Part shown: positions 11,208 through 39,200 of the stretch, in pieces
How positions within the stretch are numbered: position 1 is the first letter of the stretch
Layout: each line of letters begins with the position of its first letter
Source of the DNA: Candidatus Eiseniibacteriota bacterium
GTDB taxonomy: Bacteria; Joyebacterota; Joyebacteria; Joyebacterales; Joyebacteraceae
Assembly: GCA_030622115.1 (NCBI GenBank)
Contig: JAUXGN010000003.1
Location: 35,465-99,464, forward strand
Direction: 5' to 3'
Length of the DNA: 64,000 nt
Notes under the pieces: model-generated
What the model saw: the letters and a program-made list of their open reading frames with translations, nothing else
Database searches by the model: none
What the model was told of the DNA's origin: nothing
Translations under genes and position numbers: made by a program

Positions 11208-11290
11208 TCCAGCACTAGTCCAGGATGTGAAGTTCGCCCAGCACCAGCCCACCACGCGGATCTGATCCAGCACTAGTCCAGGATGTGAAG
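11208..11290. repeat. 25-bp direct repeat (TCCAGCACTAGTCCAGGATGTGAAG) at 11208-11232 and 11266-11290; the second copy is the last 5 codons plus stop of the minus-strand gene 11273..11908
   Basis: Exact duplicate read from the sequence; the reverse complement encodes …LHILD*. Confidence 0.8.
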
Positions 11291-11908: not shown

Positions 11909-11922
11909 TCGATGCCTCTACG

Positions 11923-12762: not shown

Positions 12763-12814
12763 TCGCTCCTATGCTCTTCTGCGTACGTTCCAATCCACTG
12801 AGTGGCTGCCCTCG

Positions 12815-13447: not shown

Positions 13448-13454
13448 TGTTCGG

Positions 13455-16022: not shown

Positions 16023-16285
16023 TGCCTCCGTTGTAACTTGCGGTGTTCGTTGGGTGGTTTAGTCAGATCCCGCGCTCGTCCGGAATCGCACGGCCCGGGC
16101 CTTTGCGGTCTGCTCTCGGCCCGACCCGGGGAGCACCGGTACCCGGAATGCGCGGCCAAGTTACCAATTCTATCAGTCTGCCGGGAGCAGTGTCCACCCG
16201 AATCTTGCGGCCCCTAGGGAACGCATGGGTACATGGTGACCCACGCAGCTGGGTAAGGAAGCCGGCCCACTTCGGTATCGCGGGC

Positions 16286-17206
16286 CTACTTCCGAGGAAA
16301 GAGGATCTGCAGTAGGGCAGGGGCTACGGGACGTCTCCGGAGTTGCTCCTCGATCTCCGTGCGGTCAAGGATCCCCTTCTCTGTGATCACGGATCTCACG
16401 AGATCGAGCGGGACAGCCTCGAGGTAGCCGTTCTCGACGGTGAGGTGAGCCGGTGGGTCACTGAGGATCTGGCTCGGATCGGCGAGACGGTTCCTGTTCC
16501 CCGCGAGCGCTTCAGGGATGAACCTATCCATGGGAGCTGCCACAACCATGGGCACATCATGCTCCCTGGCGGCGAGCGCAAGAGGGTAGGCGCCCGTTTT
16601 GCACACGATCTCTTTTGAGGTCACGCTGTCAGCGCCAATGAGTACGAGCCCACATTCAGAGATGCGACGGGGAAGGGCGGCGTCCACGACGAGGACGACC
16701 TCGATTCCAAGTGCCGATATCCGACGGGCCTGGGTCACGCCTTCCAGGACCGGGCGCGACTCAGACATAAGGACACGGAAGTTCCTTCCCGTCTCGCGTG
16801 CCTGCCGCAAAACTGCAAGTACACACTCACTCGTGCTGAGCGTCACGATAGTGACGTCATTCGTCACAATCTCGCATCCCTTCCTCCCGATGCGTTCGGT
16901 CGCCATTTCCGAACGTTCGATGGCCCGCTCGCATGCCATCGCGACCATTCCTCTCAGTGCCTCTATGCTGAGCCCGGAGAGAACCACACGCTGGGTGGCT
17001 GAGAGGATCTCTCCGGCGAGGTTGATAACCGGTGCCATTTCCCGCTGGGCGTTGGCAAGCTCCGTGCAAGCGGTCGTCAGCTCTTCCCAGAACTCCCCAG
17101 GGTCGGCCGCTTTCGAGGCTTCCGCCATCCCGGCCATCTCGAGAGCAGCCGCCCGCATGATCGCGGAAGCGCCCGAAGTAGAATCCAGTGCCAGCTGTTC
17201 GAACAT
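16286..17206 (-). CDS. eIF-2B alpha/beta/delta-family protein (ribose-1,5-bisphosphate isomerase / MTR-1-P isomerase-like)
   Basis: Real start is 'MFEQLALDSTSGAS…' at 17206. The six-frame ORF extends to 17554 through Pro/Arg-rich intergenic translation. Conserved 'VLVVDAALP…GADSV…KTGAYPLALAAREHDVPMVVAAP' core. Confidence 0.65.
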   Translation of the reverse strand: MFEQLALDSTSGASAIMRAAALEMAGMAEASKAADPGEFWEELTTACTELANAQREMAPVINLAGEILSATQRVVLSGLSIEALRGMVAMACERAIERSEMATERIGRKGCEIVTNDVTIVTLSTSECVLAVLRQARETGRNFRVLMSESRPVLEGVTQARRISALGIEVVLVVDAALPRRISECGLVLIGADSVTSKEIVCKTGAYPLALAAREHDVPMVVAAPMDRFIPEALAGNRNRLADPSQILSDPPAHLTVENGYLEAVPLDLVRSVITEKGILDRTEIEEQLRRRPVAPALLQILFPRK

Positions 17207-17301
17207 GGAGGCCTCCGTATGTGGAAGGGCATGATGAGAGCCCAGATGCGACACCGGTCTACGATGCTGGAATGACCATATCACCGGCTGGACTGGATGC
17301 G

Positions 17302-17323
17302 CCACTGCCATTCGTAGTATACT
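17302..17323 (+). promoter_or_regulatory. possible -10 element (TATACT at 17318-17323) for the ABC-F gene; no convincing -35
   Basis: Seen in the sequence 41 nt upstream of the ATG at 17364. Confidence 0.25.
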
Positions 17324-17363
17324 CCTGAAGTTCACAGAGTTCCTCTTTAAGAGAAGGCAGCGC

Positions 17364-19364
17364 ATGGTACTTCTGAGTGAATTGAGCATTTCCTTTGGCG
17401 GAACGCCCCTGTTCCGAAATCTCAGCTGGCGTGTCGGGGACCGGGACCGCGTCGGTCTCGTCGGGCCGAACGGTTGTGGAAAGACCACGCTTCTCCGACT
17501 GATCATGCGGGATGTGGGGGTCGATGCCGGGACCATCTCTGCCTCAAAGGGCACGACGTACGGCTACCTGCCTCAGGAGGAACTCACCGTATCCGGACGG
17601 ACGCTGTTCGATGAGGTGATGACCGTCCACGGCGAACTCCTCGAGATGGAGGTGCGCATGCGCGACCTCGAGCATCTCATGGCCGATACCGACCCGGATG
17701 GAAGCGAGCACGCGCGCGTCATGCGGGAGTATGCGGATCTCCAGCACCGCTTCGATGTGATGGGAGGCTTCACGATCGAGACACGTGTCGCGGAGGTTCT
17801 GTCCGGTCTAGGATTTACCCAAGATGACCACAGGAGGATGACTGAGGAATTCAGCGGCGGGTGGCAGATGCGGATCGCACTTGCGAAGCTCCTGCTCGCG
17901 TGCCCGACAGTGCTTCTCCTGGATGAGCCCACGAACCACCTGGATCTGGAATCCATCATCTGGCTTGAGGAGTACCTGTCGACGTATCCCGGAGCTGTGG
18001 TGCTCGTTTCTCACGACCGCTCGTTTCTTGACAGAGTCGTCTCCCGCATCAGTGAGCTCAGTTCCACGGGGATCGCCGACTACACGGGTGGCTATACGTC
18101 CTTTCTTGAGCAGCGAGAGAAACAGCGCGACGTGCTGATGGCAACCAGGCGTCAGGAGGAGCGGAGGATCGCGCACCTCCAGCGATTCGTGGACAGGTGG
18201 AAAGGCGACAAGAAGAAGGCGCCGCTCGTTCACAGCCGCGAGAAGATGATCGCACGCATCGAGCTTACGGAGATTCCACGGAGTACCAAGGCGATACACT
18301 TCAAGTTCCCGCAGCCTGAGCGGGGCGGAGCGGTGACGGTTTCCCTGAAGGGAATCCGTCAATCATACGGTGACAATGTTGTCTTCGACGGTCTGGATCT
18401 TGAGATCATCCGCGGAGATCGCGCGGCACTGGTCGGCGTGAATGGGGCCGGCAAATCGACACTGATGAAGATCATCGCCGACAAAATCGCGATAGCACGT
18501 GGCGAGAGGAAACTCGGGCACAACGTCACGATGCAGTACTTCGGTCAGGATCCGACCAAAGAGCTCAACCTCAACAACACCGTGCTGGGTGAGCTCGAGA
18601 CTGTCTCTCCCAATGACATGCGACCGAGGCTCCGCGGCCTGGCCGGAGCATTCATGTTCACCGGCAGCGACATCGACAAGCGAGTCAGTGTGCTGTCGGG
18701 CGGAGAGAAGAGCCGTCTCGCGTTCGCCAAGATGCTGCTCAGATCGGCCAACCTGCTCCTCCTCGACGAACCCACAAACCATCTGGACGTCGCATCGCGA
18801 GAGGTCCTCGAAGGAGCGCTCTCTCGATACGAGGGCACGATCTGCTTCGTGTCGCATGACCGCTCGTTCATGGACGCGATAGCGACCAAGGTCATCGAGG
18901 TCGGTGGCGGAACGCTGCGGACGTACATCGGTACGTACAGTGACTATCTCTGGGCCAAGAAGCGCGAGGCAGAAGAGAAGAACGTCTCACGCGGAGGGGG
19001 GAGCTCGGGAGGCCCGCGCAGCGCTCTGGGAGGCTTGCGGCACTCCGGGCGTTCGGACGGGGAAGCTCCCGCAAAGACCGGTAAGAGAAGAAGCGGTGGA
19101 CCCAAGAGCAAGGAACAGAAACGTCGGGAGGCCGAGGAACGGCAGAACGCCTCGCCGGCGAAGAAGGCTCTTCGCAGGAAATTGCGAGAGGCACGAGAAC
19201 GAATAGAAGTTGGAGAGAGCAGGCTCGAGGAGATCCTGATCGCGCTGACGGATCCAGCGGTCTACGGCGACGGGATGAAGGTCAAGGCGCTCTCGAACGA
19301 GCAGGAGGCGATTCACCAACGGGTCGACGAGCTCTACGGGTTCCTGGCCGAGCATGACGACTGA
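17364..19364 (+). CDS. ABC-F family ATPase (two ABC domains plus a C-terminal Lys/Arg-rich coiled-coil extension, Uup-like)
   Basis: 666 aa; two Walker A motifs (GPNGCGKTT, GVNGAGKST), two LSGGE/LSGG signatures, no TM domain, basic C-terminal tail. Confidence 0.85.
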   Translation: MVLLSELSISFGGTPLFRNLSWRVGDRDRVGLVGPNGCGKTTLLRLIMRDVGVDAGTISASKGTTYGYLPQEELTVSGRTLFDEVMTVHGELLEMEVRMRDLEHLMADTDPDGSEHARVMREYADLQHRFDVMGGFTIETRVAEVLSGLGFTQDDHRRMTEEFSGGWQMRIALAKLLLACPTVLLLDEPTNHLDLESIIWLEEYLSTYPGAVVLVSHDRSFLDRVVSRISELSSTGIADYTGGYTSFLEQREKQRDVLMATRRQEERRIAHLQRFVDRWKGDKKKAPLVHSREKMIARIELTEIPRSTKAIHFKFPQPERGGAVTVSLKGIRQSYGDNVVFDGLDLEIIRGDRAALVGVNGAGKSTLMKIIADKIAIARGERKLGHNVTMQYFGQDPTKELNLNNTVLGELETVSPNDMRPRLRGLAGAFMFTGSDIDKRVSVLSGGEKSRLAFAKMLLRSANLLLLDEPTNHLDVASREVLEGALSRYEGTICFVSHDRSFMDAIATKVIEVGGGTLRTYIGTYSDYLWAKKREAEEKNVSRGGGSSGGPRSALGGLRHSGRSDGEAPAKTGKRRSGGPKSKEQKRREAEERQNASPAKKALRRKLREARERIEVGESRLEEILIALTDPAVYGDGMKVKALSNEQEAIHQRVDELYGFLAEHDD

Positions 19365-19470: not shown

Positions 19471-22400
19471 CTACTTCAGCAAAACGACCTTCTTCGTCAG
19501 CTTCGTGGCATCGGAAGTGAGTCTCACGAAGTAGACTCCGGATGATGCACGTTCGCCGTGGTCGTCAAGCCCGTTCCATACTACCGTCTTCCGCCCGGCA
19601 GACATCTCCTCTGCGAGAAGCGTCCGCACATGCTCACCGGCGACGTTGAAGACGCCGAGTTCAACCGCAGCGCCCCCATCAGGCACGAGGAAAGCGATGG
19701 TAGTGGTCGGATTGAACGGGTTCGGGAAGTTCTGTTCCAGGACCATTCGGCCGTGCGTCGTAACCCCACCCTCGTGCACACCAACCGGCTCCTCATATCC
19801 GAAGAATCCATTCCGGAGGAAGTTGTGCCGGAACGTCGCCCACTGGACACCGCTGCCGTCGTCGTAGTCACCCTCGACGTCCCAGACATACACGTTGGCG
19901 TCCATACCCGAGACGATGACCTCTACGTCACCATCATCATCGAAGTCGACGAGGGTCGGCGTGCAATAGATCTCGGCATCAGTCTGGATCGGCCATCCGG
20001 CCAGGATGCTGCCGTCGTCATCGAAGGCGTAGACCTTGCCGCTGTTGCATCCGATGACGATTTCCCAGTCGCTGTCGCCATCTATGTCGCCGACGGCAGG
20101 ACTCGAGTGGGTTCCCTCATCCATCATCTGAGGCCACCCCGGCAGACTGGAGCCGTACCAGGTCCATATATAGATACTGCCATCGACTCCTGCCTGGATA
20201 ATCTCGAGTTGACCGTTGCCGGTGATGTCGGCGACGGTGGGAGAGGGAGGAAAGTCCCCGCCCATGTCGACGTTCTTCGGCCAGCCGGGAAGCACCATAC
20301 CTTCGTGGTCGAACACCCATAGCGAGTCGTCATCCGCCGCAGCCAATACCTCAAGATCTCCATCGCCGTCCAGATCTGCGACGCAGGGGGATCCGATCGA
20401 TTTCTCCGATATGCGAACGGGCCAGCCCGGGACCCGCGTCCCGTCGGGGTTGAAGCAGTAGATGCTCTCTGAGCGTGATGGAACCAGAATCTCCAGCTCG
20501 TGATCTCCATCCAGATCGACGATAACGGCCGATCCGTATGCCCACGAAGCCATCAGATCGGCGAAGACGCCGTCCGTCGCCGCGTTGTTGTCTCCATCGA
20601 TCAGCTCAGAGCCGTTCGCGCTCCAGGCGTAAACGAAGCCGTCCGCACAGGGGATCACGACATCGTCGAGTCCGTCATGATCGAGGTCACCGAGAGCGGG
20701 CGTCGCCCAGCAGAACTTGGTCGTTGTCTTCGGCCACCCGTCAAGCACGGTGGCGTCCTCTGCGTTCCAGGCGAAGATCTCGTATTCCGGCTGGGGATCG
20801 CCCACATTGGCCCACGCGGCGCAGACGATTTCCGGATAGGGGTCGCCGTCCATCTCACCCACGGCTATTGAGGACCTGTAGCCGCCCTGTCCGTCAACCT
20901 CATAGACGCCTTCGGTCCTCGGGTCGCCGTCCCCGTCCCGGTACTCGACGCCGTTGTGATGCCAGCAGTAGATGTGGCCTGCGCCCACGAGGAGTTCGAG
21001 GTCACCGTCGAGATCGATGTCAACAAGGGCAGGCGTCCCGTATATGGACTCGCCGCCTGGGAGTGGCCAGCCCGGCTGACTCGGGGGGTTCGTGCTTATT
21101 TCGATGATATCCGAGTGATCGCCCTCGTTGCCGGAGGAGTCGATCGCCGCGACCTCGTAGTAGTAGCGAGTATTCTCATCCAGGCCGGCATCTTCGAAGT
21201 AGGAGATGAGTTCAACTGTGCCGTTGTTGGCCTGTGAGTATGGTCCCGCGAGGTGTTCGGCGCGATAGATGTTGTATCCCCAGAGATCGACGTCGTCCGT
21301 GGGATCCCACGTGAGATAGATGGTCGTCGATTTGACGCGTCCGGCGAGATTGAGCGGTTCTGCTGGAGGCGTAAGGTCGAAGAGCAACGTCCAGATTTTG
21401 CCATCCTCGTCGGAGAGTTCGAGTTCAAACGGCTGTGTCACGGCTGACACGATGTCGAACTCAAAGCTGCCCGCGCTCGCCACCTCTTGTCCTGCTGCGA
21501 TGTCACCCCAGCTGTCGGTACTGTCGGTGATAGTAACCTCAGCGCCGGGGTAGCGGAGGGTCCCTGTGACCAGGTCGGCGTCGCCGTCACCCTCATTGAG
21601 GATATCGATCGTCAGAGTGAGGTGCTCACCGATGTCGGGGATGCCGTCGCCGTTTCCGTCATCGCTCGCGTGGTTCCTGAGCTGGACCGGGATCGGACGG
21701 AACACGCGGAGCGTGTACTCGCTTATCCATGAGAGACGAGTTCCCTCAGAGAACTCGACCTCAAGAACAGTCTCATACTCATTGGGGCACGTATCGGCAA
21801 TCGTGATGGCGAAAGGAGCCGAGAGCGGCATCTCACTCGTCGCAGCGATGTCGCCGATGTACTCCGTTCCGTCGATGATTGCGATCGCCGGGTCGGTGCT
21901 CGTGAGCGTAGCGGTTACGGCAGTCGCCTGAGTCTGCCCGGCATTTCCGATGAGCATGCTGATCTCGATGCTCTCACCGGCTTCGGGCAGACCGTTGGCG
22001 TTCCCGTCACTCGGTGCGACCGCGTCGTCGTCGAGTGTGACCGATCTCACGGTGACGTATGCCCCGGCCGATGAGGTGACGACGATCGTGTCCTCATACG
22101 GCAGCTGGTTGGCGGCCGTGACAGTGATCGTCATCGAGCCGGTTGTCAGAGGAGCAAAGGACAGGAGCGCCTGGCCGGACGCGTTCGTTAACCCCGTGGC
22201 ATAGACTTCGCCGTCCTTGACGACGCACACGAGCGCACTGTCGACCGCCGCAGGGTTCGAAACCGAAACCGCCAGAGCGACCTGGCCGAGTGGCACGGTG
22301 TTGTTGTGCACGACCGTCATGCCGGCCGGTCTCGCAGTCCAGAGCCGAGCTTCAGGGTCTCCGAGCAGGACGAAGCTCATCTGGGTCCAGCGGTCCGTGT

Positions 22401-24189
22401 TGTCATAGGCTGACTCGGCGACATACGGAACCTTGCACATCGCGCTGACCACCCCGGCGCGAGTTGTGTCGAACGCGTGGAGATACTCGAACCAGGAGTA
22501 GTAGTAGTCCTTTGCCGTGGTCGGGAAACAGAATCTCGTCGGGCCGTAGACAAACGCTGTACCCCCGCCAGGGTTGTTGAGCACGTGCTCCGCAATGCAG
22601 TCGTACTCGATGGCGGTCGAGGTGCAGTTGAGCATCCAGATGAGACCCGACTTGCTGATTCCGTTCGTGAGAGCGTCGACATCCTGTATCGTGACGTAGT
22701 TCTCGAATCCCGCCCGCATGATGTCCTTGTTCCCGTGGCCTACGTGCGAGATGATGTTGTAGCCGCGTTCGAGCGAATCAATCATCGATACCCTGTTCAG
22801 AGGGAAGGAACTCGGGAAAGGTGAGTAGTTCTGGTAGACGAGCGAGGTGTGAATGGCCGGCGGGATGAGATGCAGCATTGGCTCCACGACATGCTCGGCG
22901 CCGTCGGTGCTCACGTAGTCGCCCGGTTGCCAGTCGTATGGGAACAGGACCTCGGCGAGAAAGAGATCCCTCTCAGTGAAGAGGGGATCAGGCGTCGCGA
23001 CGTAGGAGATGGTCTTGTCCACGAACGTTTCGGCTTCGATGATATTCGTGACAGTGGCCCTTCCTACGAACACATCGGGGTAGAGATCCAGACTGTCACC
23101 CGGGGATGATACGCCTCCGTACCCTTCGCCGAAGTAGTTGTCACCGTCACCATTCCAGTTTCCATCGAGGTCGCTGTAATACAGGTCTGTTGAGATGTCC
23201 CATCCACCATAGTATGAAGAGCGAATGAAGCGAATGGGTACTATGTTCGTATCCCCGCCCAGAAGCACATATGTGGTTCCCCAGGAGGCGAAGGCATCCT
23301 GAATGAACAACCGAATCCGTTCCGCCGTGTCGCTGCCACCTGTGTAGTTGGCGTTGATCCACGAGACGGTCTTGACAACGGCCGGCACACCCTTCTTCGT
23401 CTTCCAGTCGGCGATATCCTGGAAGCAGGGCGCCAGGTTCTCATCGGTGATGATGACGTACTCGACAAGGCTCCCCTCGAGAGAAGGGCCGTACCGAGGG
23501 GCGAACGCGCCGGCGCCCGTTCCATCCACCACCTCAACCGACTGTTTCGCGAACGCGGCTACATCCTCGGGATTCTCGACGAGCCCACGGACGATGCTGC
23601 GATAGCGCTCGTCCGAGCTTGCCGTTATCCGGTGGCGAGGCGCCGACCGATCGACACTCGCCACGAGCTTGATCTGTGCGGAGAGGTCGGTTGTGAGAAC
23701 CAGTCTGCCCGACAGTGGGTGGTACCTGAGAGGGGAGAGGGCTATGCTGGCGATATGGTAGCCTCCGAGATATCCGTCACCCAGAAAGACCGCACGGTCC
23801 GAAGGGTAGATGGCGTCGCTCTCGTAGATCGAGGCGTCCGGATCGGCCCGGGGTGGCGTCTCGCCGATGGGAACCTCGGGCTGAACGGGACGAACCCTGT
23901 GGACGCCCGGCAGTTCCTCCTCGGCTGTGAACGAGATGATGATGTCTTCCACCGCCATGTCCGCCGGGATCACGAAGTGGATGACTCTTGCAGGGATAGC
24001 GGGCGCGCCGACCTCGGCGAGCGAGCGATGTCCCTCGAGAGCAAGCTTCGAGAAACCGTCTTCCTGCAGGATCTCAATCTGTGACACATCAACAGGGAGA
24101 TCCACAGATGGACCTGTTGCCGCTGCTGAGAGGGCGACCAACGCGATCAGACAGAGAGCCAAGGTGAGAGCTGCCAATCTGGGGGTCAT
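19471..24189 (-). CDS. giant secreted C25 (gingipain-like) cysteine peptidase with FN3 domain, FG-GAP/'GWP' beta-propeller repeats and a T9SS C-terminal sorting domain
   Basis: Start at 'MTPRLAALTLALCLIALVALSAAATG' with an AAGGAGG SD 5 nt upstream. The six-frame ORF extends to 24288. Catalytic His in 'SHVGHGN' and Cys in 'WMLNCTSTAIEYDCIAEH'. Repeated 'LDGDGDLE…PGWP' units. C-terminus 'FPNPFNPTTTIAF…GVYFVRL…KKVVLLK'. Confidence 0.75.
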   Translation of the reverse strand: MTPRLAALTLALCLIALVALSAAATGPSVDLPVDVSQIEILQEDGFSKLALEGHRSLAEVGAPAIPARVIHFVIPADMAVEDIIISFTAEEELPGVHRVRPVQPEVPIGETPPRADPDASIYESDAIYPSDRAVFLGDGYLGGYHIASIALSPLRYHPLSGRLVLTTDLSAQIKLVASVDRSAPRHRITASSDERYRSIVRGLVENPEDVAAFAKQSVEVVDGTGAGAFAPRYGPSLEGSLVEYVIITDENLAPCFQDIADWKTKKGVPAVVKTVSWINANYTGGSDTAERIRLFIQDAFASWGTTYVLLGGDTNIVPIRFIRSSYYGGWDISTDLYYSDLDGNWNGDGDNYFGEGYGGVSSPGDSLDLYPDVFVGRATVTNIIEAETFVDKTISYVATPDPLFTERDLFLAEVLFPYDWQPGDYVSTDGAEHVVEPMLHLIPPAIHTSLVYQNYSPFPSSFPLNRVSMIDSLERGYNIISHVGHGNKDIMRAGFENYVTIQDVDALTNGISKSGLIWMLNCTSTAIEYDCIAEHVLNNPGGGTAFVYGPTRFCFPTTAKDYYYSWFEYLHAFDTTRAGVVSAMCKVPYVAESAYDNTDRWTQMSFVLLGDPEARLWTARPAGMTVVHNNTVPLGQVALAVSVSNPAAVDSALVCVVKDGEVYATGLTNASGQALLSFAPLTTGSMTITVTAANQLPYEDTIVVTSSAGAYVTVRSVTLDDDAVAPSDGNANGLPEAGESIEISMLIGNAGQTQATAVTATLTSTDPAIAIIDGTEYIGDIAATSEMPLSAPFAITIADTCPNEYETVLEVEFSEGTRLSWISEYTLRVFRPIPVQLRNHASDDGNGDGIPDIGEHLTLTIDILNEGDGDADLVTGTLRYPGAEVTITDSTDSWGDIAAGQEVASAGSFEFDIVSAVTQPFELELSDEDGKIWTLLFDLTPPAEPLNLAGRVKSTTIYLTWDPTDDVDLWGYNIYRAEHLAGPYSQANNGTVELISYFEDAGLDENTRYYYEVAAIDSSGNEGDHSDIIEISTNPPSQPGWPLPGGESIYGTPALVDIDLDGDLELLVGAGHIYCWHHNGVEYRDGDGDPRTEGVYEVDGQGGYRSSIAVGEMDGDPYPEIVCAAWANVGDPQPEYEIFAWNAEDATVLDGWPKTTTKFCWATPALGDLDHDGLDDVVIPCADGFVYAWSANGSELIDGDNNAATDGVFADLMASWAYGSAVIVDLDGDHELEILVPSRSESIYCFNPDGTRVPGWPVRISEKSIGSPCVADLDGDGDLEVLAAADDDSLWVFDHEGMVLPGWPKNVDMGGDFPPSPTVADITGNGQLEIIQAGVDGSIYIWTWYGSSLPGWPQMMDEGTHSSPAVGDIDGDSDWEIVIGCNSGKVYAFDDDGSILAGWPIQTDAEIYCTPTLVDFDDDGDVEVIVSGMDANVYVWDVEGDYDDGSGVQWATFRHNFLRNGFFGYEEPVGVHEGGVTTHGRMVLEQNFPNPFNPTTTIAFLVPDGGAAVELGVFNVAGEHVRTLLAEEMSAGRKTVVWNGLDDHGERASSGVYFVRLTSDATKLTKKVVLLK

Positions 24190-24464
24190 CACTTCCTCCT
24201 TCACCGCTTGTGTTTTCGGTTCGAGCGCCTCAGGGACAAGAACGGGATCGAAGCGCATTGTCGTACGCCCGATCCCGGTGCAAGTCACGCGGATACAAAC
24301 AGAGAAACATTACCGCGCTCAGAGCTACCGTTGGGCATCGCTTTCACGATGCGTCAGATCATCAATGTCGGCTCTTTCAGGACGGTAGCAGTGTGGTGAG
24401 CGGTGTTTCTCCCCTGATGCAGCTGCCGGATGCGAATGCCAGCTTGATTGTTTCTATTGAAGAT

Positions 24465-24520
24465 ATTGTAGCATAATTTACCGAGCGCGTCAAGGAGCAT
24501 CCGCTCGATGACGCGCTCGG
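24465..24520 (-). promoter_or_regulatory. near-consensus sigma70-type promoter on the minus strand (-35 TTGACG, 17-bp spacer, -10 TACAAT) whose -35 is embedded in a 12-bp perfect palindrome (CCGAGCGCGTCA-N16-TGACGCGCTCGG); drives the C25 gene through a ~270-nt 5' UTR
   Basis: Hexamers and spacing read from the reverse complement of 24465-24493; palindrome arms at 24481-24492 and 24509-24520. Confidence 0.5.
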
Positions 24521-24603
24521 TTTACCATATGCTCTGCAAGTGATGCCTGCCCAACTCCTACACCCGCAGTGCGCATCACTGCAACCGCCACTCACACACA
24601 AGA

Positions 24604-24649
24604 AGGCGGACAGAACCTGATCCCGACATGGGACCGGTCCTGTCCGCCT
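24604..24649 (-). terminator. hairpin (10-bp stem AGGCGGACAG/CTGTCCGCCT with an inner GGACCGGTCC palindrome) followed on the minus strand by UCUUGUGUGUG; candidate terminator of the upstream C25 gene
   Basis: Inverted repeat read from the sequence 26 nt downstream of the stop at 24675. Confidence 0.45.
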
Positions 24650-24674
24650 CTCTCGAACCTCGATTGTGGTGATA

Positions 24675-27600
24675 CTACTTCAGGAGTACCATCTTGCGCG
24701 AGTCTTCCCAATCGCCGATGGCGGCACGGACGAAGTAGACTCCGGATGAGACCTGCCTGCCACGCGAGTCCTTCCCGTTCCAGACGACCAAGTGGTTCCC
24801 CGCGGTAGCTGGTCCATCAACCAGGACTGAGACAAGCCTGCCGGCGACATCGTAGACGGCGAGGCGTGCGTGCGCGCCCTCGAGACCTACCGCGTAGCTG
24901 ATCGTCGTGGTGGGGTTGAACGGGTTTGGTGCATTCTGGTGGAGCCGGTTCGGGAGCGCTGCAGAAGCGTCAGCCACTCCCGTGTTACCGATGAGATTGA
25001 GATCCGTGAGGATCCTGGTCACGTATTCGAGATGCGTCGATGGATATCCCGATCCCGTCATGCCGCCGAGGATCACCGGTATCATGTAGCGGTGTGATCC
25101 GGTTGCAGGATCGACATAGTGCGTTCCCCTGCACTCGAGACTCTGGTCGCTCCAGAGCAGAGCACTGCCGGGCTCGCCGTCGGGGCCGACCTTGCTGATG
25201 AACTGATCCGGATCGGCCTGGTAGTCATACGTGAAGTAGAGTCCATCCATGACAGTTCCGGTTGCGCCATCCAGTGACTGGACGTTCCCGATGCTCTTCC
25301 CGTTCCCCATCGCGTACGTGCAATGGAAGCGCTCCCACAGATCCAGCGTCGTTTCGGTTCCGTTGACCTTGTACTGGCCACCGAAGTTCGGTTCCTCAGT
25401 GTAGAGGCTTCCGCCGTCGTCCACGAACGCGATGAGCTGAGCAGCTTCATCGTCCGACATCGGTACGTTGAAGCCGCCGAAGTTGATGACCCCGCCCAGA
25501 TAGATGATGAGGTCGAAGGGACTGAGATCTTCCGGCAGCGTCTCGGAGTAGATGTAGAACTCGCCTATCGAGTCAAGCGTCTGAAGCCACGGCACTTCCG
25601 TGCCGTCTTCCTCAGAGAAGGTATCGTTCACTCCGTCGAACGGCATGTCGCCGTCGTCGGCGTCCCACAGGAGTACCTTGGCGTTCACGCTTGCTGCTAT
25701 CGGACCGACGCAGTCAACAAGACTGTCCTCGTTGCCCCAGAGATCTCCCGCCATCACCGCGTAGTAGTATGGCTCCGCATTCGACACGGTTGTGTCGTCG
25801 AGAGTCGTGCCGTCGGGCACGAGCAGCCCGGAAGCGATGGGCGTGAGTCCGGACACGTCCGCGAATGGCGTGGACTCGCGGTAGACCTTGTAGTACGCAA
25901 AGTCGCTGGGGGCGACATAGCCCGTCCAGTCGAGTTCCACGAGGCCGCCCAGATCGAACGGATCGGCAGCTATCAGCGTGCCGATGGGGTCGGGCGCGGT
26001 CGTGTCCAACGGCTGGTCGACGATTGTGAGTGTCTCTTCGTGAGGAAGCATGTCGGGTCCCGTCACCATCATGGAGAGAGCGCCCTCGACAGTCGGATCG
26101 ATGTCCACTTCAGCGATTCCATCGGCGCCCGTTGTGAAGACCGCATCGATCTCATCGTTGTGAAGGTAGATGGACACGCCTTCAATGGCTCCATCATCAT
26201 TCTGAATCGTTACAACGAACGGCTCACCGGATAGCGGGATACTCGTGGGGCAGTTAACGGTCGCGGTTGAAGGCTCGTGAGACCATATCCTCATCTCAGG
26301 ATCACCCAACAGATTCAGCTCGTAGAGCACGTAGCGCGTGTAGCCATCGGTACGGGCTTCGCTGACGAACACATCCTTGTGAGCAGCGTGGGCCACGCCG
26401 ATGATATCGTTGCCGTGGTTGTACAGCTGGCTGAAGAACTCGCGGTCGTACCGATCGGACGTTCCGTTGCCTGGTCCACCGGGCGAGCCCCATCCATAGC
26501 GGCTGTTGCCGACAAATGCCACGCCGCCGCCGGGAGAGTTCATCCAGTGCTCGGCGATACAGTCGTAGTCGATGGCGGCCGGATAGCATCCGATCGTCAC
26601 GAAGATGCCCTGCCTGTCTCCGTTGCTCATGCCATCGAAGTCGGAGCGGTAGAGTGACGAGCTGCCGATGCAGAGGACACTGTAGTGGGCGTGGCCGTTG
26701 TGATTCGTGATGTTCTGACCGGCGTTGAGATTGCTCATGGTTCGCGATTTCGTCAGGAGTCCGTTCGTTTCATAGAGCTTCGTGATCGGATCGAACTGTC
26801 CGGGAACCGATTCATCGTCGATGTAGTTCTTGCAGATGGCATGGTCGGTCCATGGATCGGTCCACAGCACTTCCGCGAGGAAGAGCATGTTCTCCTGGTA
26901 GTCGGTAGGGAGCGTGTTCCCGGCAGGAGAACCCTCGTACGTGAGAACCTTCGTGACGAAGCGCGATGCTTCCGTCGTCGAGTTCACTGGAGCGCGGCCG
27001 ACATAGACGTCCGCATAGAGATCGATGCTGTCCTGCGTGATCTCGCCCCATGTGCTGTCGCCATCGCCGTTCCACGTGCCATCGAGGTCGCTGTAGTAGA
27101 GATCGCAGATCGGCGAATTCTCGCTTCCGCTTCCGACGTTGTATGCGTAGGCTGCACGCGCCGGCACGATATTGGTGTCGCCTCCCAGGAGAACCCACAG
27201 AGTGCCGTGGTTCTCGTAGTAGTCGATGATACAGTTTCGGACCATCTCCGCGTTGTCGACACCGTCGTAGTTCGCATAGATCCAGGAGGTCGAAACAATC
27301 TCTGTTGTGAGGCCCTTCTGTTCCTTCCAGTCGGCAAGAGGCTGGAAGAGGGACTCGTATGTTGAGCTTGTCACGATGAGATAGTCGACTTGATCATCTC
27401 TTGTCGTGAGGGTGGAAGCCGCCTCAACATCATACGGATTGACCACGAAGTCCCTGACCCTCCCGACCACAACCGCATCCGCCCGTTCAGATCGTCTCGC
27501 GGGGACCCGAGATACTCTCGTGTCCCGCTCGAGTTCGAGAGTGACAGTGATGCTCTCATTCAGCGTAAGCCTGCCGTCGAGCGGACTGTACTGGAGTGGG

Positions 27601-28079
27601 TAGACCGCAACCGTCGCAACCCGATGTCCGGACATGTTGCCCGTGTCCATGAGGCGACAGGCCATCGAAGGATACGGCGCAGGCGACTCATATACGCTCG
27701 GTTCGGGGTCGATCCACTCCGGGATCCTCGGGAGCGAGAGCGGGATCTGCGGCTGGACCGGTCGGATTCTGAATCTTTCGGGAAGCACGCTCACTCGCGC
27801 GACCGTCGCTGATGCGCTCGAGGCCGTCATCCCGTCAGGGAGAGCGAATCGTATGAATGCGACCGGGAGTTCCGGGCGACCCAGTTCGAGCGTGGATCTC
27901 AGGCCTTTCATCTCTATGACATCGTACCCGGTCACGCGTGAGGTCACGAGTTCGTGAGACGAGAACTCCATCGAATATGCAAGTGAAGGGGCCGCGAGCG
28001 CGGCCGGAGCCCAGAGACACATGATCATGACGACCACGAGGGCTGAAGACAATACGATCCGACGCTCAGACAGCCGCAT
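24675..28079 (-). CDS. second secreted C25 (gingipain-like) cysteine peptidase with T9SS C-terminal sorting domain; paralog of 19471..24189
   Basis: Start 'MRLSERRIVLSSALVVVMIMCLWAPAALA' with the AAGGAGG SD at a 6-nt spacing. The ORF's first ATG at 28085 abuts the SD. Shared 'LLGGDTNIVP', 'GHAH…' and 'IDYDCIAEH' blocks. C-terminus 'APNPFNPTTTISY…GVYFVRA…RKMVLLK'. Confidence 0.75.
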   Translation of the reverse strand: MRLSERRIVLSSALVVVMIMCLWAPAALAAPSLAYSMEFSSHELVTSRVTGYDVIEMKGLRSTLELGRPELPVAFIRFALPDGMTASSASATVARVSVLPERFRIRPVQPQIPLSLPRIPEWIDPEPSVYESPAPYPSMACRLMDTGNMSGHRVATVAVYPLQYSPLDGRLTLNESITVTLELERDTRVSRVPARRSERADAVVVGRVRDFVVNPYDVEAASTLTTRDDQVDYLIVTSSTYESLFQPLADWKEQKGLTTEIVSTSWIYANYDGVDNAEMVRNCIIDYYENHGTLWVLLGGDTNIVPARAAYAYNVGSGSENSPICDLYYSDLDGTWNGDGDSTWGEITQDSIDLYADVYVGRAPVNSTTEASRFVTKVLTYEGSPAGNTLPTDYQENMLFLAEVLWTDPWTDHAICKNYIDDESVPGQFDPITKLYETNGLLTKSRTMSNLNAGQNITNHNGHAHYSVLCIGSSSLYRSDFDGMSNGDRQGIFVTIGCYPAAIDYDCIAEHWMNSPGGGVAFVGNSRYGWGSPGGPGNGTSDRYDREFFSQLYNHGNDIIGVAHAAHKDVFVSEARTDGYTRYVLYELNLLGDPEMRIWSHEPSTATVNCPTSIPLSGEPFVVTIQNDDGAIEGVSIYLHNDEIDAVFTTGADGIAEVDIDPTVEGALSMMVTGPDMLPHEETLTIVDQPLDTTAPDPIGTLIAADPFDLGGLVELDWTGYVAPSDFAYYKVYRESTPFADVSGLTPIASGLLVPDGTTLDDTTVSNAEPYYYAVMAGDLWGNEDSLVDCVGPIAASVNAKVLLWDADDGDMPFDGVNDTFSEEDGTEVPWLQTLDSIGEFYIYSETLPEDLSPFDLIIYLGGVINFGGFNVPMSDDEAAQLIAFVDDGGSLYTEEPNFGGQYKVNGTETTLDLWERFHCTYAMGNGKSIGNVQSLDGATGTVMDGLYFTYDYQADPDQFISKVGPDGEPGSALLWSDQSLECRGTHYVDPATGSHRYMIPVILGGMTGSGYPSTHLEYVTRILTDLNLIGNTGVADASAALPNRLHQNAPNPFNPTTTISYAVGLEGAHARLAVYDVAGRLVSVLVDGPATAGNHLVVWNGKDSRGRQVSSGVYFVRAAIGDWEDSRKMVLLK

Positions 28080-28130
28080 CTGCATCCTCCTTGAGCCGAC
28101 AATAACAACCATAACTACAACTATTACCAT

Positions 28131-28159
28131 ATTTTAACCTAATCCAACGGATTCGTCAA
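28131..28159 (-). promoter_or_regulatory. sigma70-type promoter on the minus strand (-35 TTGACG, 17 bp, -10 TAAAAT) ~45 nt upstream of the second C25 gene
   Basis: Reverse complement of 28154-28159 = TTGACG and of 28131-28136 = TAAAAT. Confidence 0.45.
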
Positions 28160-28348: not shown

Positions 28349-29584
28349 CTATCTATAGAAGGACTTGATCGTGCCCCAACTCGAGCGCTCGACCGGGATC
28401 TCAGTCTCCATGAGCCATGTGTCATCAAGCATGATGCCTGCGCCGCCCGCGGTCCCGGGCCCGCAGCCGTTGTCCGTGGTGTTGAAGGTCAACTTGAACT
28501 GGAAGAACGTCCCCGGCAGGAGATCCGTGATATCGATGCCGTCGAGACCGTGCGCGGACCACCCGTCACACTGCCCGAAATCGCCCCACCAGGCTCCGAC
28601 CTGGTTCCAGACTACCCCTCCGTCGACTGTCACCGACTCCGTGTAGTAGTCGTTGTCCACCTGCGGTACCTCGGCGTGGAGGGCAAAGAAGAGAGTACAG
28701 GCCGACGCGGGGGTGAGACCGGAGATATCCACCTGCGGTGAGATGAGGGAATTGGAGAGATCTGGTGGGATGAGACTGGTATCTGCGTCATCTCCACACC
28801 ACCAGCTGGTCGGGTCACTGTATGCCGGGCACGCACGTGTGATCTGGTGCCAGTAGTCGCCTGATGACGCGGGGACTGCTGGAGTGCAGAGCCCGCCCGA
28901 TTCCACGTCGTCCAGGAAGTAGACGGCGCCGCCGTAGAAATCGAAGATCGTCACGTTGTCTACCATATAGGCGCCTCCGACCGAGTCGTAGTCGCCATCC
29001 TCATCGGAATAGGCGCCGTCCGATACGAAGCGGAAGCGAGCTTCTACAGGATTGTCAGCCACATTGAGCACGAAGCCGTACGCACCTAAGTCGACCCAGG
29101 TGCCGCCGCTGATCAGGCCGCAGTACCCGGCGTTCTGCGCTGTGAAAACCCCGCCGATTTTCACATCGACATACGTGAAATCATAATCCTGCTCGCTGTC
29201 GTAGTAATGCACGAATGTGAGAATGGGATAGTAGGCGGTGCTCACATCCGTCGTCGGGATGATGAGAAGGTCGGTCCATGTGTTGCCGTAGCCGCCATTG
29301 GTGTCGTATGCGAAGTTACCACACCACCAGTGGTTCGTGTCGTAGGCCATGTACGTGTCAACATGGAAATGCGGAGTGGCGACAGCCGTCTCATCCACAG
29401 TCGTCCATCCGTTGGTTCCACTTTCCATGTCGTCGAACCAGAGCATGGCGGGCCGGGGGCCGAGGTCGGAATAGTCGGCGACCGACGCCTGCTGTCTGGC
29501 TGGGAGGATGGGGGAAAACAGTACGACTGCCGCGAGGGCTACGAGAACAGTCCTTGCAGTCATGATAGGACCTCCTTTGCGCAT
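28349..29584 (-). CDS. secreted Cys/Trp-rich protein of an unrecognised family with an internally duplicated module (paralog A)
   Basis: 411 aa; signal peptide; 'WWCG' appears twice (HWWCGNFAYD / SWWCGDDADT) with aromatic-rich beta-strand periodicity; no HEXXH; conserved C-terminus 'PVERSSWGTIKSFYR'; alternative start at 29563. Confidence 0.6.
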   Translation of the reverse strand: MRKGGPIMTARTVLVALAAVVLFSPILPARQQASVADYSDLGPRPAMLWFDDMESGTNGWTTVDETAVATPHFHVDTYMAYDTNHWWCGNFAYDTNGGYGNTWTDLLIIPTTDVSTAYYPILTFVHYYDSEQDYDFTYVDVKIGGVFTAQNAGYCGLISGGTWVDLGAYGFVLNVADNPVEARFRFVSDGAYSDEDGDYDSVGGAYMVDNVTIFDFYGGAVYFLDDVESGGLCTPAVPASSGDYWHQITRACPAYSDPTSWWCGDDADTSLIPPDLSNSLISPQVDISGLTPASACTLFFALHAEVPQVDNDYYTESVTVDGGVVWNQVGAWWGDFGQCDGWSAHGLDGIDITDLLPGTFFQFKLTFNTTDNGCGPGTAGGAGIMLDDTWLMETEIPVERSSWGTIKSFYR

Positions 29585-29692
29585 GAGATCGTCTCTCTCC
29601 GCTCGATCGGCGGCGGATAGGCCAGCTACGACTGATTCTTGGCCGCGGATCCCACATTGTCAACACAAAAAACCACATTCGCGGGTTGGGAT

Positions 29693-30952
29693 TCATCGAT
29701 ACAGCGCCTTGATCCTACCCCAGCTCTTGCGCTCAACCGGAACATCCGTTGTCTCAAGCCAGATGTCGTCGAGCGCAATCCCGGCTCCTCCCGCGACCCC
29801 CGGTCCGCATCCGTTCGATGTCGTGAAGAAGCGGATCATGAACTTGAATGATGTCCCAGGGAAGAGATGCGTAATGCCGTGTCCGGTAACGCCCGCGTTT
29901 CCCCAACCGTCGCACGACTCGAAGTCACCCCAGTACGCTCCCAACTGATACCACGATGCTCCATCATCTACCGATGCGTAGACGCTCCAGTAGTCGTTAT
30001 CCACGGTTGGCACTTCGGCGTGCAGCATGTAGCGCAGCGTGCAGGCGACCGAGCGATCGAGGCCGCTCAAGTCGACCGCCGGTGACTCCAGACGATTGTC
30101 CAGGTTGGGCGGGATGTGGCCGGTATCGGCGTCGTCTCCGCACCACCAGCTGCATGGATCGCTGTAGGCGGCGCACCGCCTGTCAGTGATGTGCCAGTAG
30201 TCTCCCACGGCCGGACGCACGCTGGGATTGCAGAGACCTCCGTTCTCGACATCGTCGAGAAAGTACGTCTCACCGCCGTAGTAGTCGAAGACCTTGATGT
30301 TATCAACGTGGTACGCGCCGCCGATCGAGTCGAAGCCACCGTCTTCATCTGAGATCGTGCCGTCCGAGAGAAAGCGGAAGCGAAGCTCCAGCGGGTGGTC
30401 GTATCCCTCGACAACGTATCCGTAGACACCGAAGTCCTGCCAGGAACCACCGGGTATCAGACCGCAGTAGCCCGGGTTCAGATCTGTGAATTCACCCCCG
30501 TCCTTCACTTGCACGTAGGTGAAATCGGAGCCCGGCTCGGAGTGGTAGTAGTGCGCGAATGTGAGTATCGGGTAGTCGGCGCCGGACACGTCGATGAGAG
30601 GTAGCTCAAGGCGATCGTCCCACTGGTCTCCGTATCCACCGTCCGAGTCGAAATCGAACGAACCGCACCACCATGAGCGTTCGCCCTCAAAGGCCATGTA
30701 GGTGTTCACATGAAAGTGCGGCGCTACGCCCCACGTGTTGTCTCGGTGATTCCAGCCGGCTTCGCCGCTCTCCATGTCGTCGTACCAGATAACGGTGCCC
30801 CGCGTCCTCGGGGATCGGAATGCGCGTGTGTCCATCTCGGGAGTTGCTCTGCCGTACGTGGGAAACACGAGAACCAGCGTGACGATCAGGAGAAGGCCGA
30901 CGAGATTTCTCATGTGAGTACGCCGCATCTGCGGGGATTTCGATCCGGACAT
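29693..30952 (-). CDS. secreted Cys/Trp-rich protein (paralog B, ~60% identical to 28349..29584)
   Basis: 419 aa; AAGGAGAG SD; same module order and Cys positions; C-terminus 'PVERKSWGRIKALYR'. Confidence 0.6.
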   Translation of the reverse strand: MSGSKSPQMRRTHMRNLVGLLLIVTLVLVFPTYGRATPEMDTRAFRSPRTRGTVIWYDDMESGEAGWNHRDNTWGVAPHFHVNTYMAFEGERSWWCGSFDFDSDGGYGDQWDDRLELPLIDVSGADYPILTFAHYYHSEPGSDFTYVQVKDGGEFTDLNPGYCGLIPGGSWQDFGVYGYVVEGYDHPLELRFRFLSDGTISDEDGGFDSIGGAYHVDNIKVFDYYGGETYFLDDVENGGLCNPSVRPAVGDYWHITDRRCAAYSDPCSWWCGDDADTGHIPPNLDNRLESPAVDLSGLDRSVACTLRYMLHAEVPTVDNDYWSVYASVDDGASWYQLGAYWGDFESCDGWGNAGVTGHGITHLFPGTSFKFMIRFFTTSNGCGPGVAGGAGIALDDIWLETTDVPVERKSWGRIKALYR

Positions 30953-31097
30953 GGTACTCTCCTTGGCGCAGATCGTAGGATCAGCGTGTCCGGTCTTGGG
31001 GAGGCTACGGGAAGTCTGGCAGCAGCTTCATTCTTCCTTCTGTGGGCAACCGTTGTCAATGAATATACTCCTCACGCATCCCGATACAAGCACAGGC

Positions 31098-31126: not shown

Positions 31127-31211
31127 TACAGCTGTGGTTGATTCAATACTCTTGCGGACTCCGGACTGCTGAAGGGTGTCGGGGGGACGTGCCAATGTGG
31201 AGGGTGTGTTG

Positions 31212-32147
31212 ATGAAGACAAGAAGAACGGCTCTGTGGACCATTCTGGTCATGTTCCTGGTGGTGGCTGCTGTCTCACCGCCCGCGGGAGCGAAGAAGGA
31301 CGAGGCGCCGGCGGGTCTCAAGAAGATGATCGCGGTCGTCGAGTTCGAGGACAAGAGCGACCGCAGCCGCTGGAACTGGACCGGTCCCAATCCTGGTCGC
31401 GGGATGTCCGACATGCTTGTGACCGCGCTTGTTCAGTCCGGCGCGTTCAGTGTGATGGAGCGTGAGCAGCTGGATCATGTCCTTGCCGAGCAGAACCTCG
31501 GACAGTCGGGGATGGTCACGGCCCAGACCGCGCCTCAGTTGGGAAAACTCCTCGGTGTTGCAGCCATCGTCTACGGCTCGGTGTCCGAGTTTGGCTACAT
31601 GGCATCCGATACCGGCGGCAGCATTCCCGGGTTGGGCGGCGGCGGATTTTCGAAGACGACGGCGCGCGTCTCCATCGACGTCCGTCTGATAGACACGACG
31701 ACGGCGGAGATCATCCTGGCCGAGACCGCATCGGACGAGAAAACGCAGATGGGACTCAAGCTCAGAACGCAGGATTTCTCCTTCGGGCACGACGGCAAAT
31801 TCGATCAGACGCTTGTGGGCAAGGCCACGCGTGAGGCGATCGAGGATCTGGTCGAGAGCATAGTTGAGGCACTCGAAGATGTCCCCTGGACCGGGCGGAT
31901 CATCAAGGCCTCCGGTGGGAAGATCTACCTCAACGCCGGACAGAGTATCGGCATCACGTCAGGGATGAGATTCAACGTCTACAGGATGGGGGAGGCTCTG
32001 ATCGATCCGGTCACAGGATTGGATCTGGGAGCTGAGGAGGAGTTGCTCGGCGTCATTGAGGCGTCCGATATCAAGGAGAAGTACTCCATCTGTTCGCTCG
32101 TCAGTGGTTCGGGACTCGATGCCGGAGACATGGTTCGCTACGAGTAG
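31212..32147 (+). CDS. CsgG-family (curli production assembly/transport component-like) secreted or lipoprotein
   Basis: ATG at 31212 (the in-frame GTG at 31176 is also possible); 'KKMIAVVEFEDKS…GRGMSDMLVTALVQSGAFSVMEREQL' matches the CsgG N-terminal core. Confidence 0.65.
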   Translation: MKTRRTALWTILVMFLVVAAVSPPAGAKKDEAPAGLKKMIAVVEFEDKSDRSRWNWTGPNPGRGMSDMLVTALVQSGAFSVMEREQLDHVLAEQNLGQSGMVTAQTAPQLGKLLGVAAIVYGSVSEFGYMASDTGGSIPGLGGGGFSKTTARVSIDVRLIDTTTAEIILAETASDEKTQMGLKLRTQDFSFGHDGKFDQTLVGKATREAIEDLVESIVEALEDVPWTGRIIKASGGKIYLNAGQSIGITSGMRFNVYRMGEALIDPVTGLDLGAEEELLGVIEASDIKEKYSICSLVSGSGLDAGDMVRYE

Positions 32148-38959: not shown

Positions 38960-39136
38960 CGCAAGCAACCTCAAGACAATGCTAACTACCCAGACGTCCA
39001 GGTCCGCGAGATCCGCACCCACGTGTCGAGCGGGATCGAATGCGAGCCTCGAGGCGTATGCGAGGACGCGTGTGGGCGAGCTGAAACTCGGATGGGTATC
39101 TTGTGTGGATGATGGGTTTCAGGTCGGACGGGGAGG

Positions 39137-39189
39137 CGTTGGCCGATCTCGTGCCGCGTCTCACTCTACGCAGACGGGATCGGCCAACG
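39137..39189. repeat. 12-bp perfect inverted repeat (CGTTGGCCGATC-N29-GATCGGCCAACG) in the convergent intergenic region
   Basis: Read directly from the sequence. Confidence 0.6.
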
Positions 39190-39200
39190 TCGGCGAAAAT

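Follow-up and report, generated by a model that had tools for sequence, protein, structure and literature searches.

What are the two very large peptidases encoded side by side in the genome of an uncultured Candidatus Eiseniibacteriota bacterium, and by what route would they leave the cell? The genes, here called A and B, lie on the minus strand of a 64,000-nucleotide stretch of contig JAUXGN010000003.1 (assembly GCA_030622115.1; about 60% GC), which was analysed as a whole and is referred to as the window; all positions are window-based. A sequence-only reading of the same DNA had taken them for tandem gingipain-like peptidases of family C25, with type IX secretion system (T9SS) sorting domains and a promoter for each gene. 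Domain searches, family profiles, structural models and comparison with related loci lead us to a probability of roughly three in four that A and B are anciently diverged paralogues encoding secreted gingipain-type cysteine endopeptidase zymogens (MEROPS C25, clan CD) of the Eisenbacteria lineage, with a separate, conserved sigma70-type promoter driving each gene. Taken by itself the C25 pair offers little beyond annotation. Of wider interest is that throughout an uncultured lineage the genes for gingipain-type zymogens with T9SS-type sorting domains appear to belong to the core set, each in single copy and under its own promoter, and that lectin-like and MAM-like binding partners would there replace the adhesin domains of Porphyromonas, a point that bears on the attack on detrital protein by sediment and soil bacteria. 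The pair is also a clean test case for type IX secretion outside Bacteroidota.

Gene models and domain architecture

Within the maximal minus-strand open reading frames (ORFs; 19471..24288 and 24675..28130), translation from the ATG codons at 24189 and 28079 gives gene A (19471..24189) a product of 1572 residues and gene B (24675..28079) one of 1134 residues. These starts agree with the lengths of the orthologues (1573 residues for A, 1133-1134 for B) and place a Sec-type signal peptide, read directly from the sequence, at the opening of both chosen frames (MTPRLAALTLALCLIALVALSAAA in A and MRLSERRIVLSSALVVVMIMCLWAPAALA in B). Together with the Shine-Dalgarno (SD) sequences described below, they bear out the sizes, strand and coordinates assigned by the sequence-only reading. 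In a formal domain search, which that reading had proposed as a check, Peptidase_C25 and TIGR04183 (T9SS type A) scored above cutoff in both proteins and FG-GAP_3 did so in A.

Protein A is a C25 peptidase precursor in which the signal peptide is followed by a prodomain, the catalytic domain, an Ig-like domain, two CARDB-like modules, an FN3 module, an FG-GAP propeller and a T9SS-type C-terminal domain (CTD). The gingipain-type prodomain (residues 26-209; 23563..24114, on the minus strand like every feature of A and B given here) matches Propeptide_C25 (PF08126) with 26.2 bits against a cutoff of 22, and the catalytic domain (residues 244-616; 22342..23460) matches Peptidase_C25 (PF01364) over model positions 1-374 of 374 with 183.3 bits against a cutoff of 23 (E 1e-53). 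The Ig-like domain, Peptidase_C25_C, scores 34.1 bits against 25, and the two CARDB/DUF11-like modules that lie between it and FN3 are weak. The FN3 module (residues 941-1030; 21100..21369) reaches 21.3 bits in the full protein and 25.2 bits as an isolated segment, the fn3 cutoff being 25. The beta-propeller (residues 1036-1465; 19795..21084) matches FG-GAP_3 in six stretches with 59.9 bits against 26.9; eight FG-GAP-type repeats can be read from its sequence, five of which fit a strict DxDxDGxxE-type (calcium-binding) pattern, and six [GD]WP linkers are present. The protein closes with a sorting domain of T9SS type A, FlgD_ig-like (residues 1484-1572; 19474..19740), with 32.2 bits against 23 for TIGR04183 and 36.2 bits against 27 for FlgD_ig.

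The fn3 and FG-GAP_3 matches confirm that A carries both an FN3 module and an FG-GAP propeller, as had been proposed. Compared with PDB, the family profile of the propeller matches the PLL/PHL lectins of Photorhabdus (E 9e-15 to 2e-11) and integrin alphaV (E 1e-4). By analogy, this lectin-like, calcium-type propeller most likely serves to hold the enzyme on glycans or particles, the same role that the haemagglutinin/adhesin domains have in RgpA and Kgp. The sequence-only reading had presented the fusion of a C25 domain to a propeller as one not seen in the Porphyromonas gingipains; it is indeed absent from them, but it is not rare, being shared by an orthologous family of about 1575 residues with more than 110 full-length members.

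Protein B, likewise a C25 peptidase precursor, has the same order of signal peptide, prodomain, C25 domain and Ig-like domain, followed by an FN3-like module, a family-specific alpha/beta domain and the T9SS-type CTD. Its prodomain scores 33.2 bits against 22 for Propeptide_C25 (PF08126) and its catalytic domain (residues 233-597; 26289..27383) 205.3 bits against 23 for Peptidase_C25 (E 2e-60), over model positions 1-373 of 374. FN3 had been listed as a property of one paralogue only, which has to be corrected: B has an FN3-like module too, which aligns weakly with the FN3 module of A and appears in the structural model as a beta-domain with a predicted local distance difference test (pLDDT) value of up to 89. 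The alpha/beta domain that follows (about 240 residues, approximately 800-1040; 24960..25682) is a low-confidence beta-alpha-beta prediction. It has no match in Pfam or NCBIfam, and a homology search with this domain by itself returned just four fragments of B orthologues. The CTD of B (residues 1046-1134; 24678..24944) scores 24.3 bits against 23 for TIGR04183 and 27.7 bits against 27 for FlgD_ig. It is modelled with pLDDT 76-89, and its Foldseek matches are the CTDs of PorU (6za2), PorZ (5m11) and a T9SS substrate chain (8glk_D); over the whole C-terminal model of B, matches were restricted to FN3, FlgD and CTD sandwiches. One B orthologue is seemingly split on a single long ENA contig (2,220,267 bp) into a 695-residue C25 part (P0180) and a 392-residue protein with the alpha/beta domain and CTD (P0404); the break may reflect a frameshift, decay to a pseudogene or a genuine division into two genes.

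Catalytic dyad and relation to the gingipains

The residues required of a C25 enzyme are present in both proteins. Alignment by phmmer against PDB places His211 and Cys244 of RgpB opposite His485 (22735-22737) and Cys522 (22624-22626) of A and opposite His463 (26691-26693) and Cys498 (26586-26588) of B. The catalytic His and Cys lie in the contexts HVGHGN and MLNCTS in A, and NHNGHAH and TIGCYP in B; together with the GHG and C motifs around them, these residues show no variation among 23 A-family sequences, down to 33% identity, or among 15 B-family sequences. This alignment and the full-model Pfam matches uphold the claim of two C25 proteins with a His/Cys dyad. Against PDB, the family profile of A matches RgpB (E 2e-21), the prodomain of Kgp (5mun; 6.8e-13), the prodomain of RgpB (8e-6) and the catalytic region of PorU (6e-13), and that of B matches RgpB (1.8e-13), the Kgp prodomain 5mun (1.3e-13) and PorU, the last through its CTD alone (5e-4).

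A and B thereby share with the gingipains RgpB, RgpA and Kgp of P. gingivalis (MEROPS C25; PDB 1cvr, 4ief, 4rbm, 5mun) an order of signal peptide, inhibitory prodomain, caspase-like His/Cys domain, Ig-like domain, adhesion modules and T9SS type A CTD. The sequence identity is low, however, and is detectable only by hidden Markov models. The adhesion modules differ as well: whereas RgpA and Kgp have haemagglutinin/adhesin domains, A has a FG-GAP propeller resembling the PLL lectins together with FN3 and CARDB-like modules, and B an FN3-like module and the novel alpha/beta domain. A further difference lies in the host, an uncultured high-GC bacterium outside Bacteroidota in which the two genes have sigma70-type promoters and strong SD sequences.

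Distribution and age of the pair

Each of the two proteins has a 100% identical NCBI counterpart. More than 90 full-length relatives of A, of about 1575 residues, share 48-85% identity with it, and a further set lies at 33-37%. The A family as a whole extends across Eisenbacteria and Krumholzibacteria and bears the NCBI name 'C25 family cysteine peptidase'. Named relatives are recorded under 'Candidatus Eisenbacteria' as C25 family cysteine peptidase, VCBS repeat or T9SS type A sorting domain-containing proteins, and the distant set under 'Candidatus Krumholzibacteria'. A genome scan found full-length A relatives in metagenome-assembled genomes (MAGs) of Eisenbacteria and in the complete Eiseniibacteriota chromosome CP070702.1 (locus L005), and relatives at 27% identity in one WOR-3 MAG and one 'Bacteroidales' MAG. 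About 50 full-length orthologues of B were found, 54-88% identical to it and without exception from the same lineage; over prodomain, C25 and Ig-like domain B shares 40-47% identity with many further C25 proteins that carry a CTD.

Between themselves A and B are 32% identical over the first 700 residues and 51% identical over the CTD. With an identity of only 32% and separate orthologue sets, they are old paralogues and not the products of a recent tandem duplication. Judged by these sequence comparisons, the pair is an ordinary, lineage-typical and already annotated set of gingipain-family zymogens, and its novelty had been overstated. In one metagenome study of anoxic estuarine sediment, exported C25 genes were the most abundant exported peptidase class (PMC6752024).

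Transcription and translation signals

A scan for consensus sigma70 sites over 12.4 kb, with shuffled sequence as background, found 9 sites where 3.6 +/- 1.6 were expected. Four minus-strand sites stand one upstream of each gene, counting A, B and the two genes upstream of B, with their first hexamers at 31059, 29663, 28159 and 24493. The site before A is TTGACG-17-TACAAT with a TG before the -10 hexamer (24465..24493), and that before B is TTGACG-17-TAAAAT, 51 nucleotides before the start codon (28131..28159); position 28159, at which the sequence-only reading had ended the locus, is the -35 hexamer of the B promoter. Both elements are kept in three related loci (L001, L004 and L083). In all four genomes the B element lies 51-52 nucleotides before the start, and the A element, as TTGACG-17-TAnnnT, is found in all four at a variable distance of 50-359 nucleotides, with a leader of 275 nucleotides here, about 358 in L001 and L004, and 50 in L083. 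The SD sequences are AGGAGG, about 5-6 nucleotides before the ATG of A (24195..24200), and AAGGAGG, about 6 nucleotides before that of B (28086..28092), and GGAGG-type sequences are kept in the orthologous loci. This phylogenetic footprinting supports a putative promoter of its own for each gene, and the claim of a separate SD sequence and sigma70-like promoter for both thus stands, on the scan and on the same elements in three other genomes.

The A promoter has an additional feature. A perfect 12-bp inverted repeat, CCGAGCGCGTCA-N16-TGACGCGCTCGG (24481..24520, minus strand), overlaps its -35 hexamer, and the core of this palindrome, AGCGCGTC ... TTGACGCGCT, does not vary among the four genomes, although their proteins share just 53-68% identity. 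Because of this invariance the palindrome is likely to be an operator of A; the B promoter does not have it. A terminator-like GC-rich hairpin followed by a T-rich tract after B (24605..24648, minus strand), read from the sequence and missed by a simple scan, would separate the B and A transcription units. Rfam returned no RNA element in the window.

Export, processing and activity

Export and activation of the gingipains in Porphyromonas serve as the model for the route that we propose (PMC5445135). By analogy, the precursors of A and B would cross the inner membrane by Sec and fold in the periplasm with the prodomain keeping them latent, the CTD would carry them across the outer membrane, and the sorting domain would then be cut off, with the enzyme either released or anchored at the surface. 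Loss of the prodomain would activate A and B for cleavage of extracellular protein, the products of which would feed an oligopeptide transporter (OPT) and the M3 and S9 peptidases encoded nearby, while the propeller of A and the MAM-like proteins described below would serve as binding modules. Pfam matches in the window include M3, S9, an S55-like protein, OPT and Aminotran_3; the M3, S9, S55 and OPT genes named by the sequence-only reading are therefore present, S55 as an S55-like protein. The 'proteolytic scavenging lifestyle' that it drew from these genes is a plausible interpretation, in that M3, S9 and OPT fit peptide uptake without proving such a lifestyle.

Several observations weigh against the assignment of A and B as secreted gingipain-type endopeptidases serving nutrition. 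The S1 residue of RgpB, Asp163, aligns with a variable column (His433 in A) beside an insertion, and the equivalent of RgpB Glu152 likewise lies beside an insertion. The alpha/beta domain of B is poorly resolved, the AlphaFold model of the last 448 residues having a pLDDT of 62. Length and synteny are very tightly conserved across the lineage, which would equally agree with a housekeeping function instead of one in nutrition alone. Finally, Pfam and NCBIfam scans found no PorK/L/M/N, Sov/SprA or PorU/V among the ORFs of the 64-kb window, and no T9SS machinery was found among 10 ORFs of related loci, outer-membrane-barrel-like ones included.

This last result is also what would be expected if the CTD were a plain FlgD_ig-type beta-sandwich and not a T9SS signal, the organism having no T9SS and relying on another route of export or anchoring. 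We consider this unlikely, although several points agree with it. Por_Secre_tail (PF18962) remains under its gathering score of 27 (22.5 bits in A, 17.3 in B), whereas FlgD_ig (PF13860) is over it. NCBI taxonomy lists Eiseniibacteriota among the unplaced candidate phyla, outside any named superphylum, though its position in published phylogenies is near the FCB group. The T9SS literature for the most part confines the system to Bacteroidota (PMC7463736, PMC10202324); one review, on the other hand, widens the range of T9SS and of the associated CTDs to the FCB superphylum (PMC12398890). Against a plain FlgD_ig sandwich stands the behaviour of the domain. Both proteins exceed the trusted cutoff of TIGR04183, with the match ending 2-3 residues from the stop codon, and the domain occupies the extreme C-terminus and closes with K[MV]VLLK. 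In related genomes many secreted proteins of unrelated kinds have this domain at their end, as would be expected of a sorting domain, among them an M6 peptidase at locus L084, beta-helix proteins and many ORFs in metagenomic loci; a 651-residue protein of L005 also ends in a CTD-like sequence. The Foldseek matches to the CTDs of PorU, PorZ and a T9SS substrate point the same way, as does the name 'T9SS type A sorting domain-containing protein' that NCBI gives to orthologues of both A and B. Because Por_Secre_tail is below and FlgD_ig above cutoff, the CTDs are best described as a FlgD_ig-like subtype of the type A domains, so that the earlier designation of a 'canonical' Por/T9SS domain holds for TIGR04183 but not for Por_Secre_tail. 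We infer T9SS export of A and B from the C-terminal sorting domain alone. The literature searched contains no paper linking Eisenbacteria or Eiseniibacteriota with T9SS or gingipains.

A second alternative concerns function rather than export: one of the two C25 proteins could be the PorU-like C-terminal signal peptidase or sortase of the lineage, processing either T9SS cargo or the adjacent proteins that end in a WGxIKxxYR tail (see below). PorU itself is a C25-family enzyme that has a CTD (PMC5445135), and its catalytic region is reached by the profile of A. Across the lineage, moreover, A and B each occur as a single orthologue of invariant length in a fixed syntenic position, and tail-bearing genes lie immediately upstream in every syntenic locus. 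We nevertheless hold such a role to be improbable. The PorU equivalog NF033707 gives 71.3 and 74.8 bits for the two proteins against a cutoff of 420, and PorU2 gives 27 against 450. In PorU (PDB 6za2, NF033707) the C25 domain occupies model positions 367-737 behind other N-terminal domains, whereas in A and B it follows directly on a gingipain-type prodomain; RgpB is matched better than PorU, and the B profile has no PorU catalytic match. Among the matches listed in the metagenome scan described below, a C25 domain is found in none of 80 loci that encode tailed proteins. From architecture and model scores together, A and B are gingipain-like zymogens and not PorU, and PorU identity as such, considered as a candidate for either protein, is rejected on the NF033707 scores far under cutoff and on the prodomain architecture.

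That A and B are catalytically dead adhesins on a C25 scaffold is very improbable even though lectin-like and MAM-associated binding modules dominate the architecture, since the dyad and its surrounding motifs are invariant at the depth given above and the prodomain, a latency device, is kept.

A conserved cluster with MAM-like genes

The gingipain-type pair sits in a conserved cluster of 3-4 genes with MAM-like genes, which the sequence-only reading overlooked. The conserved order is a divergent CsgG-like gene, one or two MAM-like genes, B, A and a convergent ABC-F gene; it is found in L001, L004 and L083, where A is 53-68% identical, with two MAM-like genes in the window, L001 and L004 and one in L083. 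The 10 kb upstream of A in L003 (51% identity) contain no B. At the Krumholzibacteria-type locus L084 (36% identity) A stands alone, near a Peptidase_M6 protein (15772-18396) that has the same FlgD_ig CTD; it is to the MAM domain of this family, M6 (InhA), that the MAM-like proteins of the window are similar.

The first of these genes, up1 (28349..29584, minus strand), lies directly upstream of B and encodes a secreted tandem MAM-like protein of 411 residues that ends in VERSSWGTIKSFYR; the second, up2 (29693..30952, minus strand), encodes a paralogue of 419 residues, 57% identical to up1, that ends in VERKSWGRIKALYR. Both proteins are Cys-rich, have signal-peptide-like N-termini and match Pfam InhA-like_MAM weakly (E 0.008 and 0.03). 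The AlphaFold model of up1 consists of two beta-sandwiches (pLDDT 79; predicted template modelling score, pTM, 0.69), and its best PDB matches are the InhA2 M6 peptidase (4yu5/4yu6; E 1.5e-6) and meprin MAM domains. The tandem beta-sandwich fold is what the up1 model has in common with InhA (M6) and meprin; unlike these, up1 and up2 have no catalytic domain, are Cys-rich and end in a distinctive C-terminal tail. In the C25 protein P0196, moreover, an InhA-like MAM region aligns with residues 51-221 of up1 (E 1e-8). P0196 and P0187 are Latescibacteria-type C25 peptidases that are 40-42% identical to B over prodomain, C25 and Ig-like domain and have the same CTD; in them the InhA-like MAM domain is fused in cis before the CTD, whereas here the MAM-like proteins are encoded by separate upstream genes and end in the WGxIKxxYR tail. 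Because the two are fused in other lineages and kept adjacent here, we take the MAM-like proteins to work with the C25 enzymes, and by this comparison up1 and up2 probably act as accessory subunits for binding in one surface module with A and B.

Both genes have promoter-like sites in the scan, TTGACA-17-AAGAAT before up1 (29635..29663, minus strand) and one at 31030..31059 (minus strand) before up2. A TTGACA-17/18-AAGAAT element of the MAM-like genes is conserved, also in L001 and L083, with a -10 hexamer unlike that of A and B. A GC-rich hairpin follows up1 as well (28304-28275). The divergent CsgG-family lipoprotein gene (31176-32147, plus strand; PF03783, E 1e-41) keeps its position in L001, L004 and L083; the analysis revealed nothing that ties it to the cluster, and the other tailed genes described next have no CsgG homologue in their neighbourhood.

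A candidate C-terminal signal

The proteins up1 and up2 end in VER[SK]SWG[TR]IK[SA][FL]YR (last 14 codons, 28352..28393 in up1; 29696..29737 in up2; both minus strand), and a wider consensus is C..TPVExx[ST]WGxIK[AS][LM]YR-COOH. Within the MAM-like family, which has 251 matches at E <= 1e-3 among 1.84 billion representative proteins, all forms of 400-446 residues, down to 35% identity, end in [ST]WGx[IV]Kxx[YF][RK], and long forms of 1078-1815 residues have the same N-terminal domain and end in a T9SS CTD in place of the tail. A third subfamily (P0256, P0257, P0270, P0277 and P0281) has VExxSWGx[IV]KxxYR within an insertion of about 30 residues in the first beta-sandwich, and not at the C-terminus. 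This internal-loop variant leads us to regard the motif as portable, a recognition motif rather than a strictly terminal signal.

The tail extends well beyond the MAM-like family. A metagenome scan with the back-translated tail plus stop codon gave the matches listed as loci L085-L164, to which the following counts apply: at least 89 ORFs in at least 80 loci end in the tail, and one of the 89 is a MAM-like homologue. The 76 tailed ORFs of at least 100 residues fall into at least 49 unrelated clusters, and 52 of 63 complete ones have signal-peptide-like N-termini by a crude test. Conservation extends to positions that the search pattern did not impose, namely P at -15, V at -14, E at -13, A/S at -4, L/M at -3 and R at -1 (72 of 85). 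T9SS-type CTDs are encoded in 17 of the 80 loci, and in one family, represented at 21 loci, six members end in the tail whereas seven have a T9SS CTD. One tailed protein has a 'choice-of-anchor J' domain. Apart from T9SS-CTD proteins, no recurrent neighbour family was found near the 89 tailed genes, nor any homologue of CsgG, TonB or the other window genes tested, save for ABC-F at 2 loci. No NCBIfam model matches the tail, and no paper in the literature searched has a WGxIK-type motif in this sense. On the Eiseniibacteriota chromosome CP070702.1, a TolB/PD40-like ORF a few kb from the A homologue (L005:18547-19044, minus strand) ends in ETSWGALKRHSRR, a less strict version of the tail that is here carried by an unrelated fold.

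A trivial explanation, that the tail is the last strand of the MAM-like fold, is weakened by the AlphaFold model of up1, in which the tail is unpacked (pLDDT 35-42), and by the occurrence of the tail on the unrelated families counted above. Its pattern resembles that of a candidate sorting, anchoring or docking signal. We put forward, tentatively and as a proposal more likely to fail than to hold, that the tail is an undescribed C-terminal signal of this kind in Eisenbacteria-like bacteria, an alternative to the T9SS type A domain, and that the cluster is a surface proteolytic module assembled through it. Taken to its furthest point, the proposal would have the tail processed by one of the two C25 enzymes, which are both related to the sortase PorU. 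If the proposal is true, a widespread new tail signal on dozens of secreted families would raise the question of further envelope machinery and would improve the prediction of localisation for many metagenomic proteins.

Other genes of the window

Several long ORFs of the window are Arg/Ser/His-rich, of low complexity and without a family match (57318-58499, 40426-41478 and 157-975 on the minus strand; 60619-61713, 62235-63041 and 38979-40001 on the plus strand), and from their composition look like antisense or out-of-frame artefacts of a 60% GC sequence. At 11273-14657 (minus strand) a DUF6754 protein (E 2e-111) is followed by three same-strand polytopic membrane proteins of 210-279 residues, for which neither Pfam nor NCBIfam gives a match; in related loci, too, DUF6754 stands beside a class-III aminotransferase. 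At 47335-49620 (plus strand) a single ORF of 761 residues joins MFS transporter domains to a lipid A biosynthesis acyltransferase domain.

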